Shown piece by piece: positions 3,486 to 48,242 of a stretch of DNA of 64,000 nt; position 1 is the first letter of the stretch, and the number at the start of each line of letters is the position of its first letter. This stretch comes from an uncultured bacterium (GTDB lineage Bacteria; Patescibacteriota; Minisyncoccia; Phycocordibacterales; DATDWN01). Location of the stretch: the NCBI GenBank assembly GCA_963727715.1, contig CAVSGX010000004.1:8455-72454 (forward strand), read 5' to 3'. The position numbers and the translations under genes were made by a program. Below the pieces are notes generated by a model that worked only from the letters and a program-made list of their open reading frames with translations, had not been told where the DNA came from and searched no databases.

Positions 3486-4910
3486 TTACTTATTCAATAT
3501 TTCCAAGATGATCTTTTTCAAAATCTCCGGGTTAGCGCTACCTTTGCTTGCTTTCATCCCCTGCCCCACAAAAAACTGCAGAACCGATTCTTTACCGGAT
3601 TTATAATCGGCAACCACTTTTGGGTTTTCTAAAATTATTTCTTTTATTATTTTATTTAATTCTTCTGAATCATTTTTCTGAATTAAATTTTTCTCTTTGA
3701 CAATTTGTTCTGGCTTCCCACCAGATTCAAACATCATTTTCAAAATATCTTTGACCCCGCGAGAAGAAATATTTCCTTTCTTTTGCATTAAAATAAGTTG
3801 TTTAAAAGTAGTCGGAGTCACTTTACCGAAATCAAAATTACTTTCTCCAAAAGATTTTGAAAGACCCAATAAGTCGGATGTAATGTAGTTTGAAAAAGTT
3901 TGTAAAATATTTTTATCGGATATTCCTGTGGTTGCCTCTTCAAAAAACGTCGCTACTTTCGGGTTGTTGATGTAGACTTCCACATCTTCTTTTTTCAACC
4001 CTAAATCAGTCTCAAATCTTTTTCTTTTTTGCCATGGCAGTTCCGGCAATTCAGCTTTTAATTTTGCAATAGAAAATTCCGGTATTTCTGAAATGATTAA
4101 TTTTGGCAGATCCGGTTCCGGAAAATATCTGTAATCATGAGCAGATTCTTTTGATCGTTGGGAAAAAGTAATGCCTTTATTTTCATCAAAACCGCGAGTT
4201 TCTTGAACGACTTTTTCTCCCCTCTGAAGAAGAGATTTCTGTCTTTCAAATTCATATTCCACAGCCCGGCCTGCAGACCTAAAAGAGTTTATATTTTTAA
4301 CCTCTACTTTTGTGCCGAAAATATCAGAGTTTGAAATGGAAATATTTACTTCCACTCGCATTTCACCTTTTTCCATATTGGCGTCGGAAACTTGTAGGTA
4401 CTGTAGAAGCAATTGTAATTCTTGAGCAAACTTCATCACCTCTTCGGCTGAATGAATAACCGGTTCAGTTACCAGTTCTAGGAGTGGCACGCCGGCTCTG
4501 TTGTAGTCTACCAAACTGATATCCTTTGTATCGTGACTGGACCTGGCTGTATCTTCTTCAAGGTGGACGCGAGTCAACTTCACCCCGCATAGTCCCCCAC
4601 CGGAAACCAAAGGATATTTATACTGGCTGATTTGATAGCCTTTCGGTATATCCGGATAAAAATAATTCTTGCGATCAAACTCGGTAAAATCAGCCAAGTC
4701 GCTGCCGAGAGCTACGCCAACAAGCAAAACTTTTTTGACCGCCGATTTATTTATAACCGGCAAGGTGCCGGGATAACCCATACATATCGGACAAATATTT
4801 ATATTAGGTTCTTTCTCGTCCGGCACATTCAGACAACCACAAAACATCTTGGTTTTTGTCTTCAGTTCGGCGTGAATTTCCAGCCCAATAGTTATTTTGT
4901 AATCCTCCAT
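3486..4910 (-). CDS. gatB: Asp-tRNA(Asn)/Glu-tRNA(Gln) amidotransferase subunit B
   Basis: 474 aa. N-terminus YKITIGLEIHAELKTKTKMFCGC, then VDYNRAGVPLLELVTEP and a YqeY-like C-terminal tail, typical of GatB. Confidence 0.95.
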   Translation of the reverse strand: MEDYKITIGLEIHAELKTKTKMFCGCLNVPDEKEPNINICPICMGYPGTLPVINKSAVKKVLLVGVALGSDLADFTEFDRKNYFYPDIPKGYQISQYKYPLVSGGGLCGVKLTRVHLEEDTARSSHDTKDISLVDYNRAGVPLLELVTEPVIHSAEEVMKFAQELQLLLQYLQVSDANMEKGEMRVEVNISISNSDIFGTKVEVKNINSFRSAGRAVEYEFERQKSLLQRGEKVVQETRGFDENKGITFSQRSKESAHDYRYFPEPDLPKLIISEIPEFSIAKLKAELPELPWQKRKRFETDLGLKKEDVEVYINNPKVATFFEEATTGISDKNILQTFSNYITSDLLGLSKSFGESNFDFGKVTPTTFKQLILMQKKGNISSRGVKDILKMMFESGGKPEQIVKEKNLIQKNDSEELNKIIKEIILENPKVVADYKSGKESVLQFFVGQGMKASKGSANPEILKKIILEILNK

Positions 4911-35626: not shown

Positions 35627-36645
35627 ATTTGCGAGTAAATATCTACGAATTGTTGGGCGATTTCATCCCAAGAATGACCGTGGGAACTCAAGAGAATATT
35701 TCTTTTATAATTTTGATATATTTCCGGCTCAAGTAAAATCTCCACATTACGGACCAAATCATCAACCGAAAAAGGATTGGTAAATACTACCATACCTTTC
35801 AGTTTTTCAAACATACCATTATCGGAAGTCAAAATGACTGGCAAATCAAAACGAATGGCATCACAAACCAAATTCGGGCTAACTTCCGAAAAAGAATTGA
35901 TAATAATGGCGTAAGATTTGGAAATTTTTTCCAAAAGAACTTCGTGGGAAACTTGATTTGTGTCCAAGATCAGATCTGGATGTTTCTGTTTGATTCTGCG
36001 GAAAGCTTCCGCCAATCTTTTTTTATTTTTTATAACAATGTCGCGAGACGGAGATAGAAATATTTTCTGCTCGATATTCTGGGCGACGGGCATTTCCGGC
36101 ATAGGAAAAAAATTCTCTATAATTTTTGTTTTGTTTAAATTCAAGTTGTACGACTCTTTCATAATATTTCTTTGCCATTCGGTACTGAAAATAACCATGT
36201 CAGCCGAGTGTAAAACAAACTTGGTGGTATTGAAAATAATCTTCTCTTTCAAAGAAAACTCGCGAGGAGTTTGATAGAAATGTGAAAGTAAAATTTCTTT
36301 TTTGGTTCTCTCAACAAAAGATTCCCATAAAAAATCTCCACCCACTCTTAAAACCATTTTTTTGCCAAGCAATTTGCTAAAAATGAGTGTCGGTAAACCA
36401 ACACTAAAAGAGTCCAGAGCAATGATATAGTCGGCAAAAAGAGCATCAAAAAATAGTTTGACAAAATAAAAAAAATGGCGAACTCCTGTGGGAAATTTTT
36501 TCAATTCACCATAAGTGACAACCGAGACATTATATTTTTGGATTAAAAATGAATTAAAAAGCTCCTTGGCATATCCCGCCGGACCGCCTATTTCCGGAGG
36601 GTAAATACCTGTTGCTATGACAATATTTTCCGGTATTTTGTTCAT
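35623..36645 (-). CDS. GT-B-type glycosyltransferase (GT4-like)
   Basis: N-terminal GIYPPEIGGPAGY and cluster context. Confidence 0.65.
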   Translation of the reverse strand: MNKIPENIVIATGIYPPEIGGPAGYAKELFNSFLIQKYNVSVVTYGELKKFPTGVRHFFYFVKLFFDALFADYIIALDSFSVGLPTLIFSKLLGKKMVLRVGGDFLWESFVERTKKEILLSHFYQTPREFSLKEKIIFNTTKFVLHSADMVIFSTEWQRNIMKESYNLNLNKTKIIENFFPMPEMPVAQNIEQKIFLSPSRDIVIKNKKRLAEAFRRIKQKHPDLILDTNQVSHEVLLEKISKSYAIIINSFSEVSPNLVCDAIRFDLPVILTSDNGMFEKLKGMVVFTNPFSVDDLVRNVEILLEPEIYQNYKRNILLSSHGHSWDEIAQQFVDIYSQI

Positions 36646-36654
36646 ATCCCATAA

Positions 36655-38508
36655 TCAATGCTGTTCAGGTTTATTTTTATCAATTGTGTCGTCCACATTA
36701 AGCACTTTACGCAAAACCTCTTCCGGCACTTCTTTCCCCGACGCTGGCGCGGCTGGGGTTTGGACGATTTCTTTTTTAATTCCGGGTTTTATTTCCGTTT
36801 TTATTTCCGGTTTATTCATAACTTGAGACAGAGCATTTTTCAAACTGGAAATATTTTCCACTGTCGGATTTTTTTTATTTTCACTTGAATTCAGAGTAGA
36901 TAATGAAGCTGTTTGCGCAGTTGGAGGATTCTTATTTGAATCTACTGGTTTTCTCTGCGAAAAAGATTTGTTGCGCAAATCTTCGGTGGCTTTTATAAAA
37001 GCCAACTTATTAGGATCAGGGGTTGCAATTGTTGGAGTATTGTTCTGGTTGTTATATTTCTCTTTCTCACTGAAAGGCTTGTTAAAAATCGGACGATTGT
37101 CGACGCTTCGCTGAGGAGATGCCGGCGCAGATAAGGGCATAGGCGAAAAGCTGGAACGTCCTGTTCCTATATTTCCGTCGCCTTGCCCACCACCAGCCAT
37201 TTTGTCTCTTTGGGCCGATGTCCCCTCTTCATGCCATTTTTTTATTTCTGCCTCGACTTCGCCCCGTGGTCGGGTAAACTGTTTCCACGAGCTTTCCATA
37301 ACTTCTTTTTTGAATGAGACATCCGGCCTAGTAATCGGTGGCATAGTGACAGCTGAAAACGGCGCTGAAGAAACTTCATCGATCATCAATTTCAAATAAA
37401 TTTGGTATTTGCCAAGATTGACCAAATCTTCGGCGGTGAAAGTTGGAGCGAATTCTTTTTCCAAAACTTCAGCATCAAAAGCGCCGACTCGAAATGTGAC
37501 CATGGTGCCAACGTTGCCGAAAACGGCGTCGCGCACTTCCTCTTCCATTTGCTCAATGTACTGATGTGTGATGTTTAAACCTAATTTGTACTTGCGGGCT
37601 TCGGACAAAATGTCGGCAAAAGATTTGTTGGCGAAAGATTGAAACTCGTCCACATACAAATAAAAATTCGGCAGTTTGGCTAATTGCTCTTTGTTTTTGT
37701 CCGCTCGAGACATGGCCGCCAAGTATATTTTTGTGATAAGCATTGAACCAATGAGGTTGGCATTGCCCTCACCAACAAGCCCTTTGGACAAGTTGATGAG
37801 CAATATCTTTTTCTCATCCATAAAATCGCGAATGTCAAAAGATGATTTCGGCTGGCCGATTAAATTTCGGACAAGCGGGTTTGATGTGAATTGTCCGACT
37901 TTGTTTTGAATAGCCGGTGTGGCTTCGGCTGCGTATTTGTCGGTGTATTTGGCAAATTCCTCCGTCCAAAAAGTTTTGACCGATGGATCTTTGATGTTCT
38001 CCACCACTTTTTTGCGATACTCTTTGTCAGCTAACATTCGATTAACACCAAGAAGTGTGGCACCCGGATATTCCAAGAGCGCCAAAAGAGTGTTGTTTAA
38101 AATGTAAGCCATGCGAGCTGACCAAGCATCCACCCAGATTTTCTCAAACGTGGACATGAGGCCGTTGACCACCAGATGTCTTTTGTCCACACCAATATCT
38201 TCCAAGACATTGAAAGAAACTGGATGTTCCAAATCAAATGGCGCGAAATAAAGCACATCTTTGATGCGATTTTCCGGGATGTAATCCAGCAGTTTTTCGG
38301 CCATTGAACCGTGCGGATCTATGACGGCGATACCGTTGCCATTTTGAATATCCTGGATGGCCATATTTTCCAAAAGATTGGACTTGCCAACGCCGGTTTT
38401 GCCGATAACATAAACATGACGCAAGCGATCGCTTTCTTTGATACCAAAACGGATTTTTTTGTTGCGAGCGTCCGTTTCGGCAAAATATGTGATGGGGTTT
38501 GGGTCCAT
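36655..38508 (-). CDS. VirD4/TraD/TraG-like (FtsK/HerA-superfamily) P-loop ATPase with a low-complexity C-terminus
   Basis: HVYVIGKTGVGKSN Walker A, LYVDEFQSF Walker B, and the LGLNITHQY pattern of type IV coupling-protein-like ATPases. Confidence 0.6.
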   Translation of the reverse strand: MDPNPITYFAETDARNKKIRFGIKESDRLRHVYVIGKTGVGKSNLLENMAIQDIQNGNGIAVIDPHGSMAEKLLDYIPENRIKDVLYFAPFDLEHPVSFNVLEDIGVDKRHLVVNGLMSTFEKIWVDAWSARMAYILNNTLLALLEYPGATLLGVNRMLADKEYRKKVVENIKDPSVKTFWTEEFAKYTDKYAAEATPAIQNKVGQFTSNPLVRNLIGQPKSSFDIRDFMDEKKILLINLSKGLVGEGNANLIGSMLITKIYLAAMSRADKNKEQLAKLPNFYLYVDEFQSFANKSFADILSEARKYKLGLNITHQYIEQMEEEVRDAVFGNVGTMVTFRVGAFDAEVLEKEFAPTFTAEDLVNLGKYQIYLKLMIDEVSSAPFSAVTMPPITRPDVSFKKEVMESSWKQFTRPRGEVEAEIKKWHEEGTSAQRDKMAGGGQGDGNIGTGRSSFSPMPLSAPASPQRSVDNRPIFNKPFSEKEKYNNQNNTPTIATPDPNKLAFIKATEDLRNKSFSQRKPVDSNKNPPTAQTASLSTLNSSENKKNPTVENISSLKNALSQVMNKPEIKTEIKPGIKKEIVQTPAAPASGKEVPEEVLRKVLNVDDTIDKNKPEQH

Positions 38509-38594
38509 AATCGTTTATTATTATATCACAGATGATTAAAATCCAAACCACTAAAAGCTCGCCTGATTTTGCTCCGCAAAATCAGAAAGTAAAG

Positions 38595-38660
38595 AAAAAT
38601 TCAAAATTCAAAAACAAAAGAAAAAACAAATCGACAAGAGACAAGCTACCTTTTTGGAAA
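38595..38660 (-). promoter_or_regulatory. Conserved 3' flank of a DGR variable repeat (copy A)
   Basis: aaaaattcaaaattcaaaaacaaaagaaaaaacaaatcgacaagagacaagctacctttttggaaa is identical to 40605-40670 and 43419-43484. Confidence 0.6.
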
Positions 38661-39650
38661 TCACAAGAACGAGCGGGAGAGGCGACCACCCAGAGGCGGA
38701 TGGGAACTGGACGGAGCATCGGCACGGACACCGAGCCGGGAACCGGCGGGGTTCCAATAGGCGCAGACGACACGAAAGGAAGATGGGGCGGTTTTGTCAG
38801 GGTTTGGCACTTTAGACCCGGGCAAAGCGGTCCAGTAGTATAGACCATCTTTCTCGTTTTTGGTGTCTATGTGCTTGCCTGTTTGTTCAAAGATTTTTCT
38901 TTGCAGGATGAGATAATCGGACAGAGTTAGAGATTGGTTCGGAGGCAAGGAGAGAAAGGTTTCAATCTTTTTGTTCAGAGTTTGTTTAAGCTCTGATTGT
39001 TGCCAGAGTTCTTGACTGTGGACTAGAACGATTCTTCTTTTTTTGTCTTCTATTACTCCTTCAAACCCGCCACCCGAGTTGAAATTGCTTCCGGTGTATG
39101 TTTCGTTGTATCCTTCCGACATTTTAGCGTTTAGGTCTGTCAGGTTTGGCAGAGTTTCCGGAATGAGCAGGATTGTGTCAAAACCGTGTTTTTCTATTTC
39201 TTCTCTGATTTGGTCAATGTTTCTTTCCCAGATGTTTTTCATCGTCTCGGAGAAGTCTTTCGGTCTGTCTATGGAGTGGGTTGTGTAAAAGGAAGTAAAG
39301 TATTCTATTTCTTTTTCAATATCTATGGTTATGGTTTCTTTCTTTTCTTCAGTGGTTGTTTTGCCGGTTTTTTCGTCTTTTGTCTCTTCGATATGTTTGT
39401 ATTCCACTTCTAGAGTTGTTGAGGATTTGCCTTCTATCTTTCTTTTGAGAGAACGGCATTGGGAGAGTGTTTCTTTGATTTTCAGGCTTAGTTCTTTCTG
39501 TTTCTCTGTATCTCCGCTCTCAATGGCTTTTAGGAGTTTATCTTTCATTTCTTCGGCCTGAGAGAGCAGGCCTTCCATTACGGTCAAGTCGGCCAGAGCT
39601 TGTTCTTTGGTTGGTGGAGAGTTTGGGATTTTGGGAGATTCGTGGGACAT
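38661..39650 (-). CDS. DGR target protein 1 (cytoplasmic, coiled-coil N-terminus, C-terminal variable CLec-like region)
   Basis: 329 aa. Identical to the 40671..41660 product except for the last 32 aa or so (VVCAYWNPAGSRLGVRADAPSSSHPPLGGRLSRSFL), which overlie the VR. Confidence 0.85.
   Translation of the reverse strand: MSHESPKIPNSPPTKEQALADLTVMEGLLSQAEEMKDKLLKAIESGDTEKQKELSLKIKETLSQCRSLKRKIEGKSSTTLEVEYKHIEETKDEKTGKTTTEEKKETITIDIEKEIEYFTSFYTTHSIDRPKDFSETMKNIWERNIDQIREEIEKHGFDTILLIPETLPNLTDLNAKMSEGYNETYTGSNFNSGGGFEGVIEDKKRRIVLVHSQELWQQSELKQTLNKKIETFLSLPPNQSLTLSDYLILQRKIFEQTGKHIDTKNEKDGLYYWTALPGSKVPNPDKTAPSSFRVVCAYWNPAGSRLGVRADAPSSSHPPLGGRLSRSFL
38664..38771 (-). repeat. DGR variable repeat VR-A
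   Basis: Aligns to the TR (43071-43177). By hand count it differs at 15 TR-adenine positions plus one non-A position (tgt>ggt). Confidence 0.85.
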
Positions 39651-39666
39651 AATGGATGGATGATAA

Positions 39667-40347
39667 TCAGTCTAATTTTATTAATTTCTTTGTCAGAACA
39701 GGAATTTCTTTTTGAAAAAAAGTTTTGACCGAATTCCAATCAGCGTCAAAAAAGATGACCGGCTCTGGATCGCTTTCGGCATCGTCAAAATAAACCATAC
39801 TTTTCAAGATATGGTGATAGTCGTGAGCCACAGACGGATACTGTCCCGGCAATCGTCTGATAATATTTTCCAGCGGTTCCACATTTTTGGCGCACCAGTA
39901 CAAATCAAAGAAATCTCTTTTTCTGCCTCTTTGCGAGCTGGCGATTATTTTCATCACGGCCACATCCGTTTTATTCAAAATTTTGACAAAACCGTATTCC
40001 AAAAATTTTTGTTTTGGAATAAAAAACGGATAAGCGATAAAACTGATTTTGGTGTCATACAATACGCCATATAAAGTGTTTGGTTCATCAATATCCGTGC
40101 TCCAATTTTCATTGCTTGCAAAACGAGATAACAGTTTCTTTGTTATAAAACTTTTTTCTGTGGTAAAAAAATCCAAATCAACAGATTTGCGATTGCCGGC
40201 CTGCAAAGCTAAGGCGGTGCCACCGGCCAGATACCAGCCTGATTCACTCAGCCATTCTTGGGTTGATAAAAAATCCAGAGCTGTTTTGGTTGATTTGGGT
40301 AAACATGAAAAGTTGATGATATTTAATTTTGAAGTGTCAGTGTCCAT
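39667..40347 (-). CDS. Nucleotidyltransferase AbiEii/AbiGii-like toxin family protein
   Basis: WYLAGGTALALQAGNRKSVDLDFFT is the family N-terminal signature. Confidence 0.65.
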   Translation of the reverse strand: MDTDTSKLNIINFSCLPKSTKTALDFLSTQEWLSESGWYLAGGTALALQAGNRKSVDLDFFTTEKSFITKKLLSRFASNENWSTDIDEPNTLYGVLYDTKISFIAYPFFIPKQKFLEYGFVKILNKTDVAVMKIIASSQRGRKRDFFDLYWCAKNVEPLENIIRRLPGQYPSVAHDYHHILKSMVYFDDAESDPEPVIFFDADWNSVKTFFQKEIPVLTKKLIKLD

Positions 40348-40547
40348 AATGCTTTTGTTCTTGGTCTCAAAGACCGTGATGCAGAAACAACTTTTCTCAA
40401 CAATGCCTTGTCATAAAAATTCCAAAGCCAGCGAACCTCATTATCCCTGCCAAAATCTAAAATTCTCTCAATTATATATTGAGCGTTTTTTTCAGTGTCA
40501 ATTCTGCTGACATCGGTGTCCCAAAACAAAGATTGTCTAAATGGCAT
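40323..40547 (-). CDS. Small partner protein of the AbiEii-like NTase (putative antitoxin-like)
   Basis: 74 aa. LFWDTDVSRIDTEKNAQYIIERILDFG pattern. Overlaps the NTase start by 25 nt, which suggests translational coupling. Confidence 0.5.
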   Translation of the reverse strand: MPFRQSLFWDTDVSRIDTEKNAQYIIERILDFGRDNEVRWLWNFYDKALLRKVVSASRSLRPRTKALWTLTLQN

Positions 40548-40670
40548 ACCTTCATTATATCAAATTTTGAGACAATATTCAACAAAAATCAAAATGCAAA
40601 AATAAAAAATTCAAAATTCAAAAACAAAAGAAAAAACAAATCGACAAGAGACAAGCTACCTTTTTGGAAA

Positions 40671-41660
40671 TCACAAGAACGAGCGGGAGAGGCGACCACC
40701 CAGAGGCGGATTGGAAATGGACGGATCATTGGCAACGACATTGAGCTGGGAACCGTCGGGGTACCAATGGGCGCAGACGACACGAAAGGAAGATGGGGCG
40801 GTTTTGTCAGGGTTTGGCACTTTAGACCCGGGCAAAGCGGTCCAGTAGTATAGACCATCTTTCTCGTTTTTGGTGTCTATGTGCTTGCCTGTTTGTTCAA
40901 AGATTTTTCTTTGCAGGATGAGATAATCGGACAGAGTTAGAGATTGGTTCGGAGGCAAGGAGAGAAAGGTTTCAATCTTTTTGTTCAGAGTTTGTTTAAG
41001 CTCTGATTGTTGCCAGAGTTCTTGACTGTGGACTAGAACGATTCTTCTTTTTTTGTCTTCTATTACTCCTTCAAACCCGCCACCCGAGTTGAAATTGCTT
41101 CCGGTGTATGTTTCGTTGTATCCTTCCGACATTTTAGCGTTTAGGTCTGTCAGGTTTGGCAGAGTTTCCGGAATGAGCAGGATTGTGTCAAAACCGTGTT
41201 TTTCTATTTCTTCTCTGATTTGGTCAATGTTTCTTTCCCAGATGTTTTTCATCGTCTCGGAGAAGTCTTTCGGTCTGTCTATGGAGTGGGTTGTGTAAAA
41301 GGAAGTAAAGTATTCTATTTCTTTTTCAATATCTATGGTTATGGTTTCTTTCTTTTCTTCAGTGGTTGTTTTGCCGGTTTTTTCGTCTTTTGTCTCTTCG
41401 ATATGTTTGTATTCCACTTCTAGAGTTGTTGAGGATTTGCCTTCTATCTTTCTTTTGAGAGAACGGCATTGGGAGAGTGTTTCTTTGATTTTCAGGCTTA
41501 GTTCTTTCTGTTTCTCTGTATCTCCGCTCTCAATGGCTTTTAGGAGTTTATCTTTCATTTCTTCGGCCTGAGAGAGCAGGCCTTCCATTACGGTCAAGTC
41601 GGCCAGAGCTTGTTCTTTGGTTGGTGGAGAGTTTGGGATTTTGGGAGATTCGTGGGACAT
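40671..41660 (-). CDS. DGR target protein 2 (paralog of target 1)
   Basis: 329 aa. C-terminus VVCAHWYPDGSQLNVVANDPSISNPPLGGRLSRSFL. Confidence 0.85.
   Translation of the reverse strand: MSHESPKIPNSPPTKEQALADLTVMEGLLSQAEEMKDKLLKAIESGDTEKQKELSLKIKETLSQCRSLKRKIEGKSSTTLEVEYKHIEETKDEKTGKTTTEEKKETITIDIEKEIEYFTSFYTTHSIDRPKDFSETMKNIWERNIDQIREEIEKHGFDTILLIPETLPNLTDLNAKMSEGYNETYTGSNFNSGGGFEGVIEDKKRRIVLVHSQELWQQSELKQTLNKKIETFLSLPPNQSLTLSDYLILQRKIFEQTGKHIDTKNEKDGLYYWTALPGSKVPNPDKTAPSSFRVVCAHWYPDGSQLNVVANDPSISNPPLGGRLSRSFL
40674..40781 (-). repeat. DGR variable repeat VR-B
   Basis: Differs from the TR at 9 adenine positions (hand count) plus the same tgt>ggt change. Confidence 0.85.
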
Positions 41661-41672
41661 GGAAGTATTCTA

Positions 41673-42700
41673 TCATGTTATAACAATATCATTCAATATT
41701 GAAGTCAGTTTGTTTTTTAATCCAAATGAATCGCAGTGTTTCAGTAAAGCAAAATAAGACTGAAAATTATTCTTGTTCATTCTTTCAAAAATTTTTTGCT
41801 TGGTTTTATCTCTCAATAAAAGACAATCTGGCAAAGTCAGAGATCCTAGAAAATCTACTCCCCATTTTAATTTTCTGATTGAGATTTTATCATCCGGGAT
41901 TTGCAGAAACAGTTTTGCCATAAATTTTTTAATTTCAACCAAACAAAACCCCAATCTTTTTTTATTTTTATTTACCAAAATAAAATCGTCGTTGTATCTT
42001 ATATAAAATCTGGCGTTTAATTTTTTCTTCACAAAATGGTCAAAATCGTTCAAATAAATGTTGGCGAAAATCTGGCTGGTGATGTTGCCGAGCGGGATGC
42101 TTTTGTCAGAGCCATGAAGCGAGCAAAAACTTTCTACTATTTTCCCCACTTCCAAAAAAATATTTTCATTTTTCACTTTTCTTTTGATAAATTTCAGCAG
42201 TAGGCGGTGGTTGACACTTTCAAAGTATTTTTTGACATCGCATTTTAAAATAAAAACATCCCCATTTTTTCTTTTCGCCAATCCATTGAAATATTGGAGA
42301 GTTTTGACGGCTTTATGCGTTCCTTTTCCGTCTCTGGATGAATAACGGCTTTATGCGTTCCTTTTCCGTCTCTGGATGAATATGAGTCGGCAATAAATGC
42401 CGGCTCAAATAGATTTTTCAAATAATCGGATATTATTTGATGAATAATTCTATCTTTAACTTCAGCTTTGTGAATATTTCTTTTCTTGTTGTCAGTAACA
42501 ATAAAATGCGAATACCCGCCATGGCGGTAAGTTTTGTTTTTCAGATCTCTGTGCAAATCAAAAATATTGTCTTCCAAATGTCTTTCAAAAATCATTACAT
42601 CCATCTTGGAGGACTTTCCCCGCCGAAATTTCCGCCAAGCTGAAAATATATTATCAAGACTGAATAATTCGTTATAATTTTTATGGAACAAGACGCTCAT
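41673..42700 (-). pseudogene. DGR reverse transcriptase, frame broken by a 38-bp tandem duplication
   Basis: Motifs SYSSRDGKGTHKAV, FILKCDVKKYFESVNH, IPLGNITSQIFANIYLN (DGR-type GxxxSQ) and YIRYNDDFILV (YxDD). Deleting one copy of 42307-42344 restores a 329-codon ORF. Confidence 0.85.
42307..42382. repeat. Perfect 38-bp tandem duplication inside the RT gene
   Basis: acggctttatgcgttccttttccgtctctggatgaata occurs twice in a row (42307-42344 and 42345-42382). Confidence 0.9.
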
Positions 42701-42718
42701 AAAATTGAAAAATTGGAA

Positions 42719-43057
42719 ATGCCTATTATGGCCAAACTCTTTATCATTTACGAACTGACGCACAAGCTTATTTTCAAATTGCCGAAATTTGAAAGATACA
42801 CTTTGGGTGAAAAAATTGAAAATATCATCTTGGAAACGATTGAAATAATTGTCATCGCCAATGGGACGAACAAATACGAAAAAGAAAAATATTTGCTCAA
42901 AGCCAATGCCAAAGTGGAAATGCTTAAGTTGCTTTTTCGCATCGTTTTGAACTGCCAAATCATTGATTTCAAAAAATATTTGGAGGCGGAAGGGTTGCTT
43001 CAAGAAATCGGCAAAATGGCGCAAGGTTGGATAAAATACACCAGAAACGCAAAATAG
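42719..43057 (+). CDS. avd: DGR accessory variability determinant (four-helix-bundle, 23S rRNA-IVS-protein family)
   Basis: MPIMAKLFIIYELTHKLIFKLPKFERYTLGEKIENIILETIEIIVIA...LLQEIGKMAQGWIKY matches the Avd/four-helix-bundle pattern. It is on the opposite strand to the RT, TR and targets. The start could be 42683, 42719 or 42728. Confidence 0.7.
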   Translation: MPIMAKLFIIYELTHKLIFKLPKFERYTLGEKIENIILETIEIIVIANGTNKYEKEKYLLKANAKVEMLKLLFRIVLNCQIIDFKKYLEAEGLLQEIGKMAQGWIKYTRNAK

Positions 43058-43070
43058 CTTTTGTATAAAG

Positions 43071-43177
43071 CAAGAACGGCGGGAGAGGCGACAACCCAGA
43101 TTCGGATTGGAATTGGACGGATCATTGGCATTGACATTGAGCTGGGAATTGTCGGGGTTCCAATTGGCGCAGACGAC
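43071..43177 (-). repeat. DGR template repeat (TR)
   Basis: Sense (minus) strand: gtcgtctgcgcc AAT tgg AAC ccc gAc AAT tcc cAg ctc AAT gtc AAT gcc AAT gAt ccg tcc AAT tcc AAT ccg AAT ctgggttgtcgcctctcccgc. It holds 21 adenines, mostly in AAT codons. All three VRs vary at these positions. Confidence 0.9.
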
Positions 43178-43409
43178 TGCGGTCGCCCCTCGATTAGCTT
43201 TGCGTCGTCATTTCCGTTTGGAAACAAGACTCTATTTATTAGGGGCTACTTCCCCCTGACGCAAAACTGCTGTTCTTGTGTTTTATTTCCACAAATCAAC
43301 GACTATTTGGTTTCTAAAATTCAGAAACCATCTTTCGCCGTCAATTAGCGCTTCGGCAAACCAACTCATCACTGATGGCTTACGAGCCGAAGCGGGCGAT
43401 TTTTGCTTC
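43178..43409 (-). other. Structured non-coding spacer between target 3 and the TR (candidate 5' part of the TR RNA)
   Basis: Nested stems: ttgcgtc..gacgcaa, gggg/cccc, tttcc/ggaaa, ggtttct/agaaacc and gcgcttcggc/gccgaagcg. A minus-strand TTGACG-17-AATTTT promoter-like signal is present. Confidence 0.4.
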
Positions 43410-43484
43410 GCAAAAATAAAAAATTCAAAATTCAAAAACAAAAGAAAAAACAAATCGACAAGAGACAAGCTACCTTTTTGGAAA

Positions 43485-45512
43485 TCACAAGAACGAGCGG
43501 GAGAGGCGACAACCCAGATTCGGATAGGAATAGGACGGATCATCGGCACCGACAACGAGCTGGGAATAGCCGGGGTCCCAATGGGCGCAGACGACGCGGA
43601 AACCGCCGGATGGATTTTTGACTGTTGAGCCGGGTAGCCATGTCCAACCGTCTTCATCCAAATGTTTGCCTGTTTGTTCAAAATATTGCTTTTGATACAA
43701 CAAATAATCTGTCAGAGACATTTTTTCACCTTGCGATATAAACTCCTCGGCTTTTTTATTCAGAGTTTTCTTCAGTTCCGAATGGTCTTTCAGATTTTGA
43801 GCGCTGTTTTTATGAATCAAAACGATTCTTCTTTTTTTGTCTTCTATTACTCCTTCAAACCCGCCACCCGAGTCGAAATTGCTTCCGGTGTATGTTTCGT
43901 TGTATCCTTCTGACATTTTTTTATGTATATCGGTTATGGTCAATCCTCCGGGCACAAGCAAAATCTCATCAAAACCATATTTTTCTACTTCTTGTTTTAT
44001 CTCGTCATAATTGTTCACCCATATATCCGCCATTTCTTCCGCAAATGATTCCGTCAATTCAATTTCGTGAGCTTTATAAAAAAGAAGAGAATCCTCAAGT
44101 TTTTTGTCAAAATTTATTTCTATTTTCTCTTTCTTTTCTTTGCCTTTCTCGTCCACGATTTTGTGTTCGGCAGAAACCACCGGTTCAAACGAACTGCCGG
44201 TCAATTCTCTTCTTTTACTTCTGAAAAATTTCTCCAAATCGGCTATTTCATTTTCAATCTTCTCTATCCCGTCCGCCGGACTTTCGGTTTTACCACCTTC
44301 AGGAATTGCCTCAGCAGACGCTTCTTTTTCTTCTTCGTTATTTTTCTTTTTTCTTTTCGTTCCTTTGCGTTTGGAATCTTTGGTTTCTATTTTGACTTCA
44401 ACCAATCGGATGATTTCTTCCAATTTTGTTCTGTCTTCGGCGCTTTCCAGTCTGTTGACATAATAATATTTCAGGGCTTTTTGAAAAGTTTCGCTGATGT
44501 CGCCATTGTAAAAACGCAAAACAAAATTTCTGACCCGCCTCGGCTCTTCGCGGTCGTCATAGGTGAAAACTTGTGGTTGATCTTCGGCGATTTGCCTGTT
44601 TTTCAAAAGTTCTTTGGCGGTTTTGTGAAATTCCTTGTATTTTTCCAAAATTTCGGCAATGCCTGGAATTTCCGAAAGTTGTTCCTGCGTCAAACCACCG
44701 GCGCCGGATAAAAACATATCATCAGGCAATTCGGCGGTTTTCTTTTCCAAACCGTTCTCTAAACCAAACAATGCACCAGTCGCTTGCTTAAAGGTCTCTT
44801 CCGGTAATTCATTTGGCATTTTTTTATAAACCCATCTGCGAAGCTGAGCTGGATCAAGTGGCTTTCTATCCAAATAACCGGCTCCCGGAGGATTCATAAA
44901 AGCGATGATTTTGGTTTTTTGTTTAGAAACTTTAACTGTTTCCGAAGCGTCTTCTGACAAAATGACATCGCTATCACGCTCCAGAGAATCCAAAACTTCA
45001 TGCAAACGAATCAAAATGTTCGGCGCCGATGAGTTGAATTCGTCCAAAACAATAATTTTGACTTTACCGTCTTCCTGTCGTAAACCGCTAGTTACTTTTC
45101 CGTCGGCGAAAATGTATTCCGGGTCTTCCGCATTATTTTTACGAGGATTTGGTATATATCGGCCCATCAAATCCTCCACATCCGTGGCACCGTTTAAGTT
45201 TATGTAATGAACTTCGTAGCCGAGCTCACTGGCCATTTTTCGCACCGTGGTGGTCTTACCAAAAGATGTTCCGCTTTCCACGGCAATAGGGTCGCCCATG
45301 GAAAACGACACGGCGATGTCACGTTGCAGTGGCAGAGCCACTTCGGTATCATTGGTGTAGTCCTTGTAATTTTCTCTTCTTGGCACAAATTGGCCATTTC
45401 TGTTTTTAGCTTTTTCCAGAGTAACACCCATATAAGAAACACTCCCGTCAGTTTCCATTATCGGCTCCAGTTTTGCTTCCGGATTGTTAAATTGTCCTTC
45501 TGGTGTTTTCAT
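43485..45512 (-). CDS. DGR target protein 3: AAA+ (MoxR/AAA_5-like) ATPase fused to the target C-terminal module
   Basis: 675 aa. GTSFGKTTTV Walker A, IIVLDEFNS Walker B. The C-terminal 230 aa or so is homologous to targets 1/2 (KMSEGYNETYTGSNF.SGGGFEGVIEDKKRRIVL). It ends VVCAHWDPGYSQLVVGADDPSYSYPNLGCRLSRSFL. Confidence 0.85.
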   Translation of the reverse strand: MKTPEGQFNNPEAKLEPIMETDGSVSYMGVTLEKAKNRNGQFVPRRENYKDYTNDTEVALPLQRDIAVSFSMGDPIAVESGTSFGKTTTVRKMASELGYEVHYINLNGATDVEDLMGRYIPNPRKNNAEDPEYIFADGKVTSGLRQEDGKVKIIVLDEFNSSAPNILIRLHEVLDSLERDSDVILSEDASETVKVSKQKTKIIAFMNPPGAGYLDRKPLDPAQLRRWVYKKMPNELPEETFKQATGALFGLENGLEKKTAELPDDMFLSGAGGLTQEQLSEIPGIAEILEKYKEFHKTAKELLKNRQIAEDQPQVFTYDDREEPRRVRNFVLRFYNGDISETFQKALKYYYVNRLESAEDRTKLEEIIRLVEVKIETKDSKRKGTKRKKKNNEEEKEASAEAIPEGGKTESPADGIEKIENEIADLEKFFRSKRRELTGSSFEPVVSAEHKIVDEKGKEKKEKIEINFDKKLEDSLLFYKAHEIELTESFAEEMADIWVNNYDEIKQEVEKYGFDEILLVPGGLTITDIHKKMSEGYNETYTGSNFDSGGGFEGVIEDKKRRIVLIHKNSAQNLKDHSELKKTLNKKAEEFISQGEKMSLTDYLLYQKQYFEQTGKHLDEDGWTWLPGSTVKNPSGGFRVVCAHWDPGYSQLVVGADDPSYSYPNLGCRLSRSFL
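43488..43595 (-). repeat. DGR variable repeat VR-C
   Basis: Differs from the TR at 11 positions, all TR adenines (hand count). Confidence 0.9.
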
Positions 45513-45515
45513 ATT

Positions 45516-45917
45516 TTATGAACGATAAACCGGCCCAACTTTGTCTATAATTTCAAAACTTCTTTCTTTCAATTTCGCCAAAACGCTTTCCGTAGCGACC
45601 AAAACCAAAACCTGACTTTGATAATCAGGTGAAAAAACTTTTGATTCATTTTTTTCTTTATCAAAAATCTCAACTTGACCTGTCGGATACTGCGCGACAA
45701 AATCATATAAGTCCTTCGGTAGATTTTCGTCCAAAACCAGATACATTTTTTGAAAACCAAAAAAATCAAAAACATTTTTTGATGTTTGAAATCCACTATC
45801 TTCAAAAAACTTGATAAAACCACCCATCTCGCTTTCATCCCGCGCCAAAACAAGTCCGACATCTTTTTGTCCTTTCAAGATATCCAGAAACTCATGCAGA
45901 CCTTCGTTTTTGTTCAT
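45516..45917 (-). CDS. Hypothetical protein between the vWA and AAA genes
   Basis: 133 aa, no recognisable motif. Tight spacing (stop at 45516, next start at 45512) suggests an operon. Confidence 0.5.
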   Translation of the reverse strand: MNKNEGLHEFLDILKGQKDVGLVLARDESEMGGFIKFFEDSGFQTSKNVFDFFGFQKMYLVLDENLPKDLYDFVAQYPTGQVEIFDKEKNESKVFSPDYQSQVLVLVATESVLAKLKERSFEIIDKVGPVYRS

Positions 45918-45956
45918 AGTTGTATTCTAACACTAACCGGAAAATTATCAAATTTT

Positions 45957-48242
45957 TCAACCAACAACTTCTTTCTCAAGTATTTCTGATATATCTTTTA
46001 TTATTTTGTCCACTTTTATATTATCGGATTTTAGCGGGTAATAAATAAGCTTTACACCGCCGGCTTTTTCGATTTTGCCTTTAATTTTTTGAAAATCATA
46101 TTTTGAGCCGGGATGTTTAGTGGATTCAGCTGGTCTGTCATCCGAAAAAACAATCATTATTTTGTTGTCTGTTTTTTGTTTTGCAAGTCTTGCCGAAGCG
46201 GTTTCCATAGCCCAACCAATGTCGGTTTCATTATGCTCATTTCCGCAATTTTTGCAACAACTATCTTCAACCTCTTTAAACATTCCTCCCATGTGTTCCC
46301 TGATTTTTTTTGACATTGGCTCTCCAAATTTTTGATACTCGTATATATCATCATTAAAACCGTTAATTTCAACGTTCAATCCTAGTTTGTTTAATGCTTC
46401 AGCCAGCACAACTTTTGCTTTGAAATCTTCTTCAATTTTTTTACGCATAGAACCAGATAAATCGTTTAGAATGGAAATTGAATATTCTTTTTCATCTGGT
46501 TTTTCTCTTTTTTGCCAAGCGTTGCTTTCTATTGGCGAAATGCGTCTGGCTTTTTCCTGAATCCTTGTTTTTATATCAATTCTTTTGCCTATTCTAAAGC
46601 CCTTTTTCCATCTTGTGGTTTGGGTGTCAACAAATATCTGTCTTAGTTTATTTTCCAATTCATCAATCAGCGACGAAACTTCTCGTCGGTGCTTTTCATA
46701 AATATTTTCGTCTTTATTGACTTCTCTTTTTAATCTTTCTTTGTATATTCTCAATCCTTCCAAATCAAGAGGTTCTTTTCTTAAAGTTCCGGTTCTGACC
46801 GGAGCGCCGCCTTGATTTTGATTGTTTATTTCAACCCCTGGCAAATTTTCCGGCGGTTCTGGATTTTTTCTTTCTGCTTTTTCCTCCGGATTTTCAGTCA
46901 ATTTGCCTTCCATTTCTTCGTTTAGTTTGTCTTCAAATTCCTTCAGCGCTTTTTCGGCTCTGTCGGCCAGCTCTTTTTTCACATCTTCCGGAAGCGAGTC
47001 GACATAATCCCTTATTTTTTGTTTTATTTCGTCGGAAAGGTCGTTCAGGTTTATTGTCCTCGCACCGATATCGTCTAGCGTCTGTGGTTGTTCATTGCCG
47101 GTGTTGTCTTCGTGTGGAGTCGGCTTGTTTGTGATTTTATCTTCTCCCTGCCCACCTGTTGACATTGGTTTGATTTTTTCTTTCTCTTTTTTTGCTTCAT
47201 CAATAGCTTTGTCAATAGCATTTTCCAACGTTTTCTTTTCTTCTTCGGTTAATTTGTCTTCCAAATCTTTTGGCAGTTTTGATTTTTTTTCATTTTTTTT
47301 ATCTTCACTTTCTCCTTCCTGATTTCCGTTATCTTTTTGTCCATCACCACCTTCCTTCCCATTTTCTCTTTCTTGCTCTTTTTTCATTTCTTCCATCATC
47401 TTTTTCATCACATCTTTCAACACTTCTTCCATTTTCTCATCCTCTTTATCTGCTTCAACCAGTTTTTTAAATTCTGGCCAAATTTCTTCCAGATTTATTT
47501 CATACGACACTTTGGCGTATTCTTTTATTTTTTCTTCACTTTCATCCGCTTCCTCTCGCGACGGATATCGCCACCAAGAATCCTGAGCTGATTTCAGTGT
47601 GGCTAAAACAACAGCTTTGACTTCTTCGGGCAAATCTTCCGAAATTTCAAAATTCTGTCCCTGTTTTTCACGAAACCATTGTCTAATATATTCATACCCC
47701 GCTTGCACAAAACGCGGTTGGAAACCCAGTTTTTCGGTAGCTTCTTTCTTTTCTTTTTCTCTTTTGGCAAAAAAATCATCCCAAGCAAATTTTATATTTT
47801 CATCGTATTTCGGATAACTCTCGGAAACAAAGTTGTCGTTTCTGGGATCTTCAATGAAATTCATCATAGCTGAAAAGCCCGGTTGTCGCCATGTTTCAAT
47901 CGGAATAAAATCTGTTCTGGAAACTCGTCTATGTCCTCCTTCGTGACAAATTAAATATCTCAATAATTCAATTGGCTCCGTCAGCAGAGTTTTCGGGTCA
48001 ACTCTGATGACATTTTTTTGAAAATCCCAATGCCAGCCAGCGCCTGGTTGGTTTAGTTCTATCGGCATCTCAAAATCTTTGCCAATAAAATAAGCCAGAG
48101 ATGACAAAATATTTTTCTTGCGCAGAATTTCTTTTTGTTCTTCTTCGTTAAATCGCTTCAAGATTTCCTCTTCTGGATTTTGCCGGAGAGAATCGTAGGT
48201 TTGTTCGTTTTGATTGAATTTTGGTCCTTCCATAATTTGCAA
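45957..48242 (-). CDS. vWA-domain protein with N-terminal HExxH metallopeptidase-like domain (DUF2201-like MoxR partner)
   Basis: 761 aa. LICHEGGHRR (HExxH), a long E/K-rich linker, and a C-terminal vWA with MIDAS LNDLSGSM and ..IMIVFSDD. Confidence 0.7.
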   Translation of the reverse strand: MQIMEGPKFNQNEQTYDSLRQNPEEEILKRFNEEEQKEILRKKNILSSLAYFIGKDFEMPIELNQPGAGWHWDFQKNVIRVDPKTLLTEPIELLRYLICHEGGHRRVSRTDFIPIETWRQPGFSAMMNFIEDPRNDNFVSESYPKYDENIKFAWDDFFAKREKEKKEATEKLGFQPRFVQAGYEYIRQWFREKQGQNFEISEDLPEEVKAVVLATLKSAQDSWWRYPSREEADESEEKIKEYAKVSYEINLEEIWPEFKKLVEADKEDEKMEEVLKDVMKKMMEEMKKEQERENGKEGGDGQKDNGNQEGESEDKKNEKKSKLPKDLEDKLTEEEKKTLENAIDKAIDEAKKEKEKIKPMSTGGQGEDKITNKPTPHEDNTGNEQPQTLDDIGARTINLNDLSDEIKQKIRDYVDSLPEDVKKELADRAEKALKEFEDKLNEEMEGKLTENPEEKAERKNPEPPENLPGVEINNQNQGGAPVRTGTLRKEPLDLEGLRIYKERLKREVNKDENIYEKHRREVSSLIDELENKLRQIFVDTQTTRWKKGFRIGKRIDIKTRIQEKARRISPIESNAWQKREKPDEKEYSISILNDLSGSMRKKIEEDFKAKVVLAEALNKLGLNVEINGFNDDIYEYQKFGEPMSKKIREHMGGMFKEVEDSCCKNCGNEHNETDIGWAMETASARLAKQKTDNKIMIVFSDDRPAESTKHPGSKYDFQKIKGKIEKAGGVKLIYYPLKSDNIKVDKIIKDISEILEKEVVG

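Follow-up and report, generated by a model that had tools for sequence, protein, structure and literature searches.

Why should three target genes of one DGR, the third of them encoding an otherwise different protein, be followed past their stop codons by the same A/T-rich sequence? The question is raised by a 64-kb stretch of Patescibacteria DNA, analysed at its full length and referred to here as the window. The earlier note on this DNA reported identical flanks of 66, 75 and 75 nt after the three stop codons, and a blastn-short search of the flank against the window bears this out: 40596-40670 and 43410-43484 are identical at 75/75 positions and 38595-38660 at 66/66. A 65-nt core of the flank has exactly three exact occurrences in the window (38596-38660, 40606-40670 and 43420-43484), when none is expected by chance and none of 100 shuffles gave a match. 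The other blastn-short matches in the window are low-complexity runs of at most 16 nt, with the single exception of a 24-nt match (87.5% identity) that overlaps the second flank copy in part. The letters printed in the note give the antisense strand, the genes being on the minus strand. Each flank opens at the first base past the target stop codon, and its sense strand reads TTTCCAAAAAGGTAGCTTGTCTCTTGTCGATTTG...TTTTTGC, in full TTTCCAAAAAGGTAGCTTGTCTCTTGTCGATTTGTTTTTTCTTTTGTTTTTGAATTTTGAATTTT(TTATTTTTGC); the 75 nt comprise 44 T, 12 A, 11 G and 8 C (25% GC). We hold with moderate confidence, from comparison of sequences, that the flank is a cis element tied to the VRs in one clade of Patescibacteria (CPR) DGRs and may act as a recipient-site signal that is free of a hairpin.

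All three flank copies lie on the minus strand. Copy 3 (75 nt, 43410-43484), an exact copy, abuts the stop codon of target 3 and lies upstream of the 5' domain of the DGR RNA and the TR; copy 2 (75 nt, 40596-40670) is directly 3' of the target 2 stop and is followed by a sigma-70-like promoter (40582-40554); copy 1 (66 nt, 38595-38660) is directly 3' of the target 1 stop and ends where the unit of the target 1/target 2 duplication ends. Within copy 3 we distinguish a tandem heptamer core, GTAGCTTG-TCTCTTG (43459-43473, minus strand), which recurs at 40645-40659 and 38635-38649 and is the part of the flank best conserved between loci, and a structure-free T-rich tract (43410-43457, minus strand) with 33 T in 48 nt. 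The flanks of targets 2 and 3 end in TATTTTTG. Two AT-rich hairpins stand near the flank ends, one at 38564-38582 (minus strand) just past flank 1, GATTTTGC-GGA-GCAAAATC, and one at 43399-43417 (minus strand) at the end of flank 3, ATTTTTGC-GAA-GCAAAAAT; judged by eye, their outer two stem pairs use different bases with pairing kept, and neither hairpin has a counterpart after flank 2.

Read along the minus strand, the locus runs from the gene of a VWA protein through a 133-aa ORF, target 3 with VR-C, flank 3, an RNA domain and the TR to avd, which is on the opposite strand, and then through the RT gene, target 2, flank 2, a small ORF with an AbiEii-like gene, target 1 and flank 1 to a T4SS coupling-protein-like gene. 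Target 3 (43485-45512, minus strand) is a MoxR-like AAA_5 ATPase that carries its VR domain at the C-terminus, while target 2 (40671-41660, minus strand) and target 1 (38661-39650, minus strand) are proteins of 329 aa that are identical except in the VR. VR-C (43497-43595), VR-B (40683-40781), VR-A (38673-38771) and the template repeat (TR, 43079-43177) are likewise on the minus strand. The three VRs are genuine, because 35 of the 37 VR/TR mismatches sit at adenines of the TR; the remaining two are one T>G change, seen twice, at the edge of the IMH. The A-mutagenesis region is closed in all three VRs and in the TR by the GC-rich core GTCGCCTCTCCCGC, an IMH-like element found at 43497-43510 in VR-C, where TCGTTCTTGTGA follows up to the stop at 43485, at 40683-40696 in VR-B and at 38673-38686 in VR-A. 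TR and VRs share this core and the next 8 nt, apart from a single T deleted in the TR (IMH* is thus IMH minus one T), and then diverge totally. The flank is therefore specific to the VRs, and no flank element follows the TR. The T>G change, in CTGGGT[T/G]GTCGCC, is common to VR-A (38687) and VR-B (40697) and lies just 5' of the GC-rich IMH core, VR-C agreeing with the TR; it may mark the 3' limit of cDNA transfer.

The adenine-directed mismatches are accompanied by a DGR-type RT gene beside the TR and by an Avd. The RT gene (41673-42643, minus strand; RVT_1, E = 9.8e-15) is frameshifted by an exact 38-nt tandem duplication (42307-42382, two copies of ACGGCTTTATGCGTTCCTTTTCCGTCTCTGGATGAATA on the plus strand), with two ORFs as the result. 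With one 38-nt copy removed, the RT ORF is continuous, and along its full length it shares 63% identity with the intact RT of the related locus L001. Either this genome has an inactivated DGR or its assembly is in error; the three VRs nevertheless differ from each other. If the frameshift is real, the element is not under DGR-dependent selection here now, because the RT gene is broken. The avd ORF (124 aa, 42683-43057, plus strand) matches NCBIfam DivGenRetAVD with E = 5e-19 and 68.5 bits, which is below the curated cut-off of 80 bits; the syntenic avd ORFs of related loci match Pfam bAvd. It lies antisense between the TR and the RT gene, stops about 20 nt short of the TR 3' end, and has a promoter-like site of its own at 42651-42678; the antisense arrangement is also found in L001, L005, L006, L007, L008 and L013. 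Between flank 3 and the TR there is a conserved structured RNA domain of about 215 nt (43178-43395, minus strand), which matches nothing in Rfam and is presumably the 5' part of this clade's DGR RNA. Its stems include CTTCGGY...RCCGAAG and the long-range pair AGTTTTG.../...CAAAGCT; counterparts exist in L001 (about 1037-1250), L002, L005, L006, L007, L008 and L013, and 14 of the 24 predicted pairs show compensatory changes across seven loci.

The neighbouring genes merit brief mention. Target 3 belongs to an operon of VWA (45957-48242), small-protein (45516-45917) and MoxR genes that is conserved and widespread in Patescibacteria; some target 3 homologues are full-length and include the VR domain, and many are alike in the ATPase part alone. 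A cytoplasmic-type ATPase with a DGR-diversified C-terminus is unusual. Between two DGR targets lie a small ORF (MPFRQSLFWDTD...) and an AbiEii-like nucleotidyltransferase toxin gene (39667-40547, minus strand), for which a TTGAAT-17-TATAAT promoter is present at 40582-40554, and the syntenic L001 locus carries the same insertion (3757-4636). Directly downstream of target 1, the T4SS coupling-protein-like gene (36655-38508, minus strand; T4SS-DNA_transf and TrwB matches) hints at a mobile-element or DNA-uptake context in this Patescibacteria genome.

The earlier note took the flank to be conserved independently of gene duplication, on the ground that the coding DNA just 5' of VR-C is unrelated to that of VR-A and VR-B, and this conclusion is overstated. 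Targets 1 and 2 form a perfect duplication from the start codon to +66 (38595-39650 equals 40605-41660 except at 12 VR positions); their shared flank is part of a very recent duplication and nothing more. For target 3 the description of the coding DNA is roughly right, with 30-70% identity to targets 1 and 2 (30-nt windows) in the approximately 230 nt 5' of VR-C, but the C-terminal domain of this otherwise different protein is homologous to theirs. Identity is about 80% inside the VR, where the differences are those of A-mutagenesis, and 100% from the IMH to +75, copy 3 matching copy 2 over that whole interval, and it is random past that point. Moreover, a 99-nt island of target 3 (43821-43919), encoding KMSEGYNETYTGSNF.SGGGFEGVIEDKKRRIVL, is identical at 97/99 positions to targets 2 and 1 (41037-41135 and 39027-39125) within coding DNA that is otherwise 40-65% identical, and looks like a gene-conversion tract between paralogues, which confounds the comparison with target 3. 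Paralogues therefore appear to exchange sequence here, and flank identity alone is no proof of selection. The 100% identity of the three flanks is most simply attributed to duplication and gene conversion in addition to probable selection, and identity inside this genome is by itself weak evidence.

These observations also lend themselves to a neutral explanation, namely that the flank is a functionless passenger of a recent duplication of the VR cassette or of gene conversion seeded at VR and IMH. The identity of targets 1 and 2 from start codon to +66, with the target 1 copy ending exactly at the duplication boundary, and the converted island in target 3 are what such a passenger would leave, as is the identity over the whole ORF and flank of three L001 genes and of two L005 genes. 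We regard a passenger as unlikely, and what speaks against it comes from other genomes.

Comparison with the VR-proximal elements of related DGRs, a step proposed in the earlier note, was made with loci from independent genomes and metagenomes (L001/L003, L002, L004-L007, L008/L009, L010, L011/L012 and L013). Protein searches place the host of the locus in the Patescibacteria, the sources of homologues being named Magasanikbacteria, Zambryskibacteria and 'Patescibacteria group'. About ten related loci keep the core motif, although their targets have 36-69% amino-acid identity (54% for those of the syntenic loci L001 and L003) and their downstream genes differ. In most of them the element consists of two tandem heptamers, consensus GTARCTTG-TARYTTG, 0-13 nt past the stop codon of the VR gene; the usual sequel is a third, TTTGTAT-like unit, to which ATTTGT in the T-rich tract of copy 3 corresponds, and then a T-rich tract of 30-45 nt. 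The heptamers begin 12-23 nt past the GC-rich CCCGC core of the IMH in all loci, and the motif follows every VR gene in L001/L003, L002, L004 (three genes), L006 (two), L007, L008/L009 (two) and L013. The variants are GTAGCTTGTAGCTTG in L004a and L006a, GTAACTTGTAGCTTG in L001, L006b and L008, GTAGCTTGTAATTTG in L007, TTAACTTGTAATTTG in L002, GTAGTTTGTAAATTG in L013 and GTAGCTTGTCTCTTG in the window; degenerate variants with a 7-nt period occur in L005 (GTCCTTGGTCTTGG...) and in the distant L010/L011 subclade (CTTTGGTCTTTGTTATTTGATCCTTTG). Among the eight lineages with the canonical motif, the mean frequency of the top base is 0.89 over the 15-nt heptamer block and 0.62-0.66 on either side.

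What lies beyond the flanks varies from locus to locus and includes the TR RNA, a toxin pair, a T4CP-like gene, pyruvate kinase, GatB and convergent genes, the last represented by an apparent tRNA gene (by eye) downstream of L006b and a peptidase gene downstream of L011. The element therefore belongs to the VR gene upstream. Where one locus has heterologous targets (targets 3 and 2 of the window, L008 and L006), an island of conservation with 77-100% identity runs from the IMH to between +45 and +75, flanked by coding DNA that is 40-65% identical on one side and by random sequence beyond; in L008 (a MoxR-type and a 342-aa-type target) and in L006 (two diverged targets) the island ends at about +45. 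The flank copies of L004 and L006 carry substitutions and retain the motif, and we take such diverged, motif-bearing copies as the main argument that purifying selection, rather than hitch-hiking alone, is likely to have acted. A mere passenger would not account for a heptamer motif kept between lineages that show only 36-69% identity in their targets and no alignable intergenic DNA elsewhere, for the L004 and L006 copies in which both motif and T-tract survive substitution, or for the exceptional T content described below. It is thus the comparison across about ten related loci, and not the identity within one genome, that shows what appears to be selection on the element.

The motif is also restricted to VR genes. 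A scan of 124.5 kb on both strands, allowing up to two mismatches, gave 14 matches, all of them 3' of VR genes and on the sense strand, an exclusivity that is partly circular as the motif was derived from the same sequences. The T content of positions +16 to +50 averages 0.34 (sd 0.15) over 124 ORFs, the targets included; in the VR genes it is 0.49-0.74, and at least 0.54 outside the distant L010/L011 subclade, and VR genes supply 14 of the 16 highest values. Being multi-copy and identical, the flank might be thought a generic intergenic repeat of the REP or MITE kind, the outcome that the earlier note named as fatal to its proposal. We consider this the least credible of the explanations and highly improbable: the three copies in 64 kb all follow VR genes, as do the 14 of 14 motif matches in 124.5 kb, the flank has no inverted repeats, and a narrower form of the motif had 0 matches in viral contigs. 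Nor was a relative found among viral contigs by RT profile, and a phage origin was rejected after megablast gave no match in 50,697 phage records.

Two of the related loci have features of separate interest. In L011/L012 (8001-10600 of GCA_002306385.1, DBRV01000004.1) a MoxR-type target with a VR-like C-terminus is followed by a variant of the flank and by the first part of the DGR-RNA domain; there is no TR and no RT, and a convergent peptidase gene comes next. This looks like a decayed DGR in which the target tag persists, and since flank and part of the DGR-RNA domain are retained, we dropped the locus as a 'no-DGR' control. L004 (10001-16828 of ENA ERZ27313539 k141_837048) has three VR-type targets with the flank motif and no RT within 20 kb, and its VR-type genes may be remote targets; in the third copy, L004c, the motif reads GCAGCTTG and the VR is more degenerate.

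The earlier note likened the flank to the structures that adjoin the IMH in known DGRs. The likeness holds for position, a short distance 3' of the VR (4-34 bp in the known element), and for absence after the TR, whose sequel is unrelated; it does not hold for structure. When IMH plus flank of eight loci were folded as DNA, MFE values were 0 to -4.9 kcal/mol and z-scores -0.56 to +1.75, with no shared stem or inverted repeat. Set against 200 dinucleotide shuffles, four of the eight flanks form weaker folds than 198 or more of these, and the remaining four cannot be told from them; if anything, the flank is predicted to be depleted of structure. An inverted repeat with a GC-rich stem of 7-10 bp, as described by Guo et al. 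2011, was not found, nor was a 4-nt GRNA loop on the sense strand, there being no hairpin inside the flank; the AT-rich hairpins with GGA and GAA loops stand past the flank in targets 1 and 3, and target 2 has none. We have accordingly ruled out a hairpin or cruciform in the flank, on the folding of the eight loci.

The second suggestion in the earlier note was a shared terminator or UTR. A canonical terminator can be set aside: the terminator scan found no intrinsic terminator in or beside the three flanks, no stem precedes the T-tract, and canonical terminators with a GC hairpin stand past the flank in L010 and L005b. A 3'-UTR role is another matter. The flank could be an RNA element (a site for RNase processing, a determinant of stability or a non-canonical terminator) that travels with the VR cassette and takes no part in retrohoming. 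On the sense strand it comes directly past the stop codon, its sequence is U-rich and free of structure, AT-rich hairpins come just past the flanks of targets 1 and 3, and the GC hairpins past it in L010 and L005b imply that it is probably transcribed. In addition, the TR-proximal copies part the target ORF from the structured DGR-RNA domain, a place where a processing site is plausible. Against this, a T-tract without a preceding hairpin is no intrinsic terminator, the other genes of the same loci have no such tract, and a UTR function would explain neither the restriction to VR genes with unrelated N-terminal architectures (the 329-aa type and the MoxR fusion) nor the strict conservation of the tandem heptamers at a fixed short distance from the IMH. 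We judge a 3'-UTR element somewhat unlikely, and rank it ahead of the neutral passenger, which in turn stands ahead of a promoter, with a generic repeat last.

A promoter or regulatory region for what lies downstream (the TR and DGR RNA, the AbiEii pair or the T4CP-like gene) would suit the TTG motifs in a T-rich region, the TATTTTTG end of the flanks of targets 2 and 3, and the lack of any other promoter-like site between flank 3 and the DGR-RNA domain. The scan for sigma-70 type promoters (-35/-10, spacing of 16-18 nt) nevertheless placed none of its 12 promoter-like sites inside the flank; no copy has a pair of sigma-70-like hexamers, and the TTGAAT-17-TATAAT sequence is just outside copy 2. 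In L010/L011 a TGnTATAAT promoter likewise stands past the flank, and where the downstream gene is apparently convergent, as with the tRNA gene of L006b (by eye) and the peptidase gene of L011, there is nothing to drive. We therefore think a promoter improbable. A Bacteroidetes-type promoter (-7 element TAnnTTTG at the end of the target 2 and 3 flanks) was also considered and rejected, as the hosts are Patescibacteria and the element is absent from target 1 and the other loci. Rfam 15 gave no match in or near the flanks (36000-46000, E <= 1).

If the flank is the VR-linked cis element that we favour, what might it do? In phage BPP-1, retrohoming requires the IMH, a GC-rich hairpin lying 4-34 bp downstream strongly enhances it, and IMH plus hairpin are enough to target a foreign gene (PMC3240598; PMC12875486). 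Wu et al. found inverted repeats in only 34% of DGRs, and pointed out that where IMH equals IMH* recognition must reach downstream (PMC5758913). Here, IMH and IMH* differ by a 1-nt indel in the window and in L001 and are identical through CCCGCTGTTT in L002. The IMH alone is unlikely to discriminate VR from TR, because the two differ by one base only. We suggest that the element may mark the VR as the recipient of mutagenised cDNA, apart from the donor TR with its near-identical IMH*; we propose this because IMH and IMH* differ by at most one base and the element is the only conserved VR-specific feature. It would then have the same role as the GC-rich hairpin or cruciform of BPP-1, exerted not by a hairpin but by its sequence together with an AT-rich stretch that has no structure and opens easily. 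Its position, exclusivity and conservation suggest that retrohoming needs the element or is enhanced by it, and we give this part of the reading the same moderate confidence as the whole.

Two features could contribute, and both suggestions are speculative. The heptamers might offer sequence-specific docking for Avd-RT or a host factor, and an AT-rich, strand-asymmetric, unstructured stretch beside the GC-rich IMH might favour exposure of the sense strand. Candidate readers would be the Avd-RT ribonucleoprotein or host replication and repair machinery acting on the sense strand; recent work finds editing to be favoured with the sense strand as lagging-strand template, and the route of DGR cDNA into the VR is still an open question (PMC12875486). 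We put forward more tentatively the wider idea that Patescibacteria DGRs use a sequence-specific, structure-free signal, the tandem GTARCTTG pair with its T-tract, read by Avd-RT or by the replisome on the lagging-strand template. If true, this would add to the known DGR target-recognition elements a second class that works by a different mechanism, and it could explain part of the roughly two-thirds of DGRs without inverted repeats. Some observations count against our preferred reading. L005 and L010/L011 have degenerate heptamers only. There is also no complementarity to the DGR RNA that would hint at a guiding mechanism: pairing of the flank with the DGR RNA (either strand, from the flank end to the RT start, seven loci) was rejected, as its energies are indistinguishable from those of shuffled flanks, with z-scores of -1.4 to +0.6 and one of -2.6, and inconsistent pairing positions.

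The BPP-1-type hairpin is the only defined recipient-site determinant besides the IMH, and the flank is a concrete, testable candidate for the mark of the recipient site when the hairpin is missing, in a clade of cellular DGRs. Should it prove functional, CPR genomes could be searched with a simple sequence tag for DGR targets that are remote or orphaned, and the engineering of DGR targeting would gain a compact part. Models of integration would be constrained as well, an easily melted, T-rich sense strand being suited to the annealing of cDNA to an exposed single-stranded template. If it is merely a UTR element, it amounts to a modest annotation detail. A limited check of the DGR literature found no description of the VR-downstream heptamer/T-tract motif, of an antisense avd or of a structured RNA upstream of the TR; within that check, a putative cis element beside the VR that is defined by its sequence and lacks structure is undescribed for Patescibacteria DGRs.

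Among known systems, the CPR/Patescibacteria DGRs of clade 2 (Roux et al. 2021, PMC8144416) resemble the present locus in their Patescibacteria hosts, as judged from the names of homologue sources, and in being cellular and chromosomal with multiple targets, whose C-terminal VR domains sit on varied N-terminal modules, in line with the proposal of that paper; this likeness is one of host and architecture. Compared with IMH/IMH*, the GC-rich core GTCGCCTCTCCCGC is present, and the flank itself lies outside the TR-VR homology. With intrinsic terminators the flank shares a T-rich tract just past the stop codon, and unlike them it has no stem-loop ahead of the tract. The closest counterpart, by position and in supposed function, is the hairpin or cruciform that Guo et al. 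2011 (PMC3240598) describe for Bordetella phage BPP-1 and other phage DGRs. Both elements lie immediately downstream of VR and IMH (at 12-23 nt here and 4-34 bp there), are present at every VR, absent from the TR and common to the multiple targets of one DGR, and form the sole obvious difference between recipient and donor when the IMH is close to IMH*. The flank, with 25% GC, nevertheless has no inverted repeat, GC-rich stem or GRNA loop, and it is not a member of the BPP-1-type class because both of the structural features that define the class fail. In BPP-1 the stem sequence is free and structure is what matters (PMC3240598), whereas in the flank it is the primary sequence and the strand-asymmetric T-richness that are conserved.
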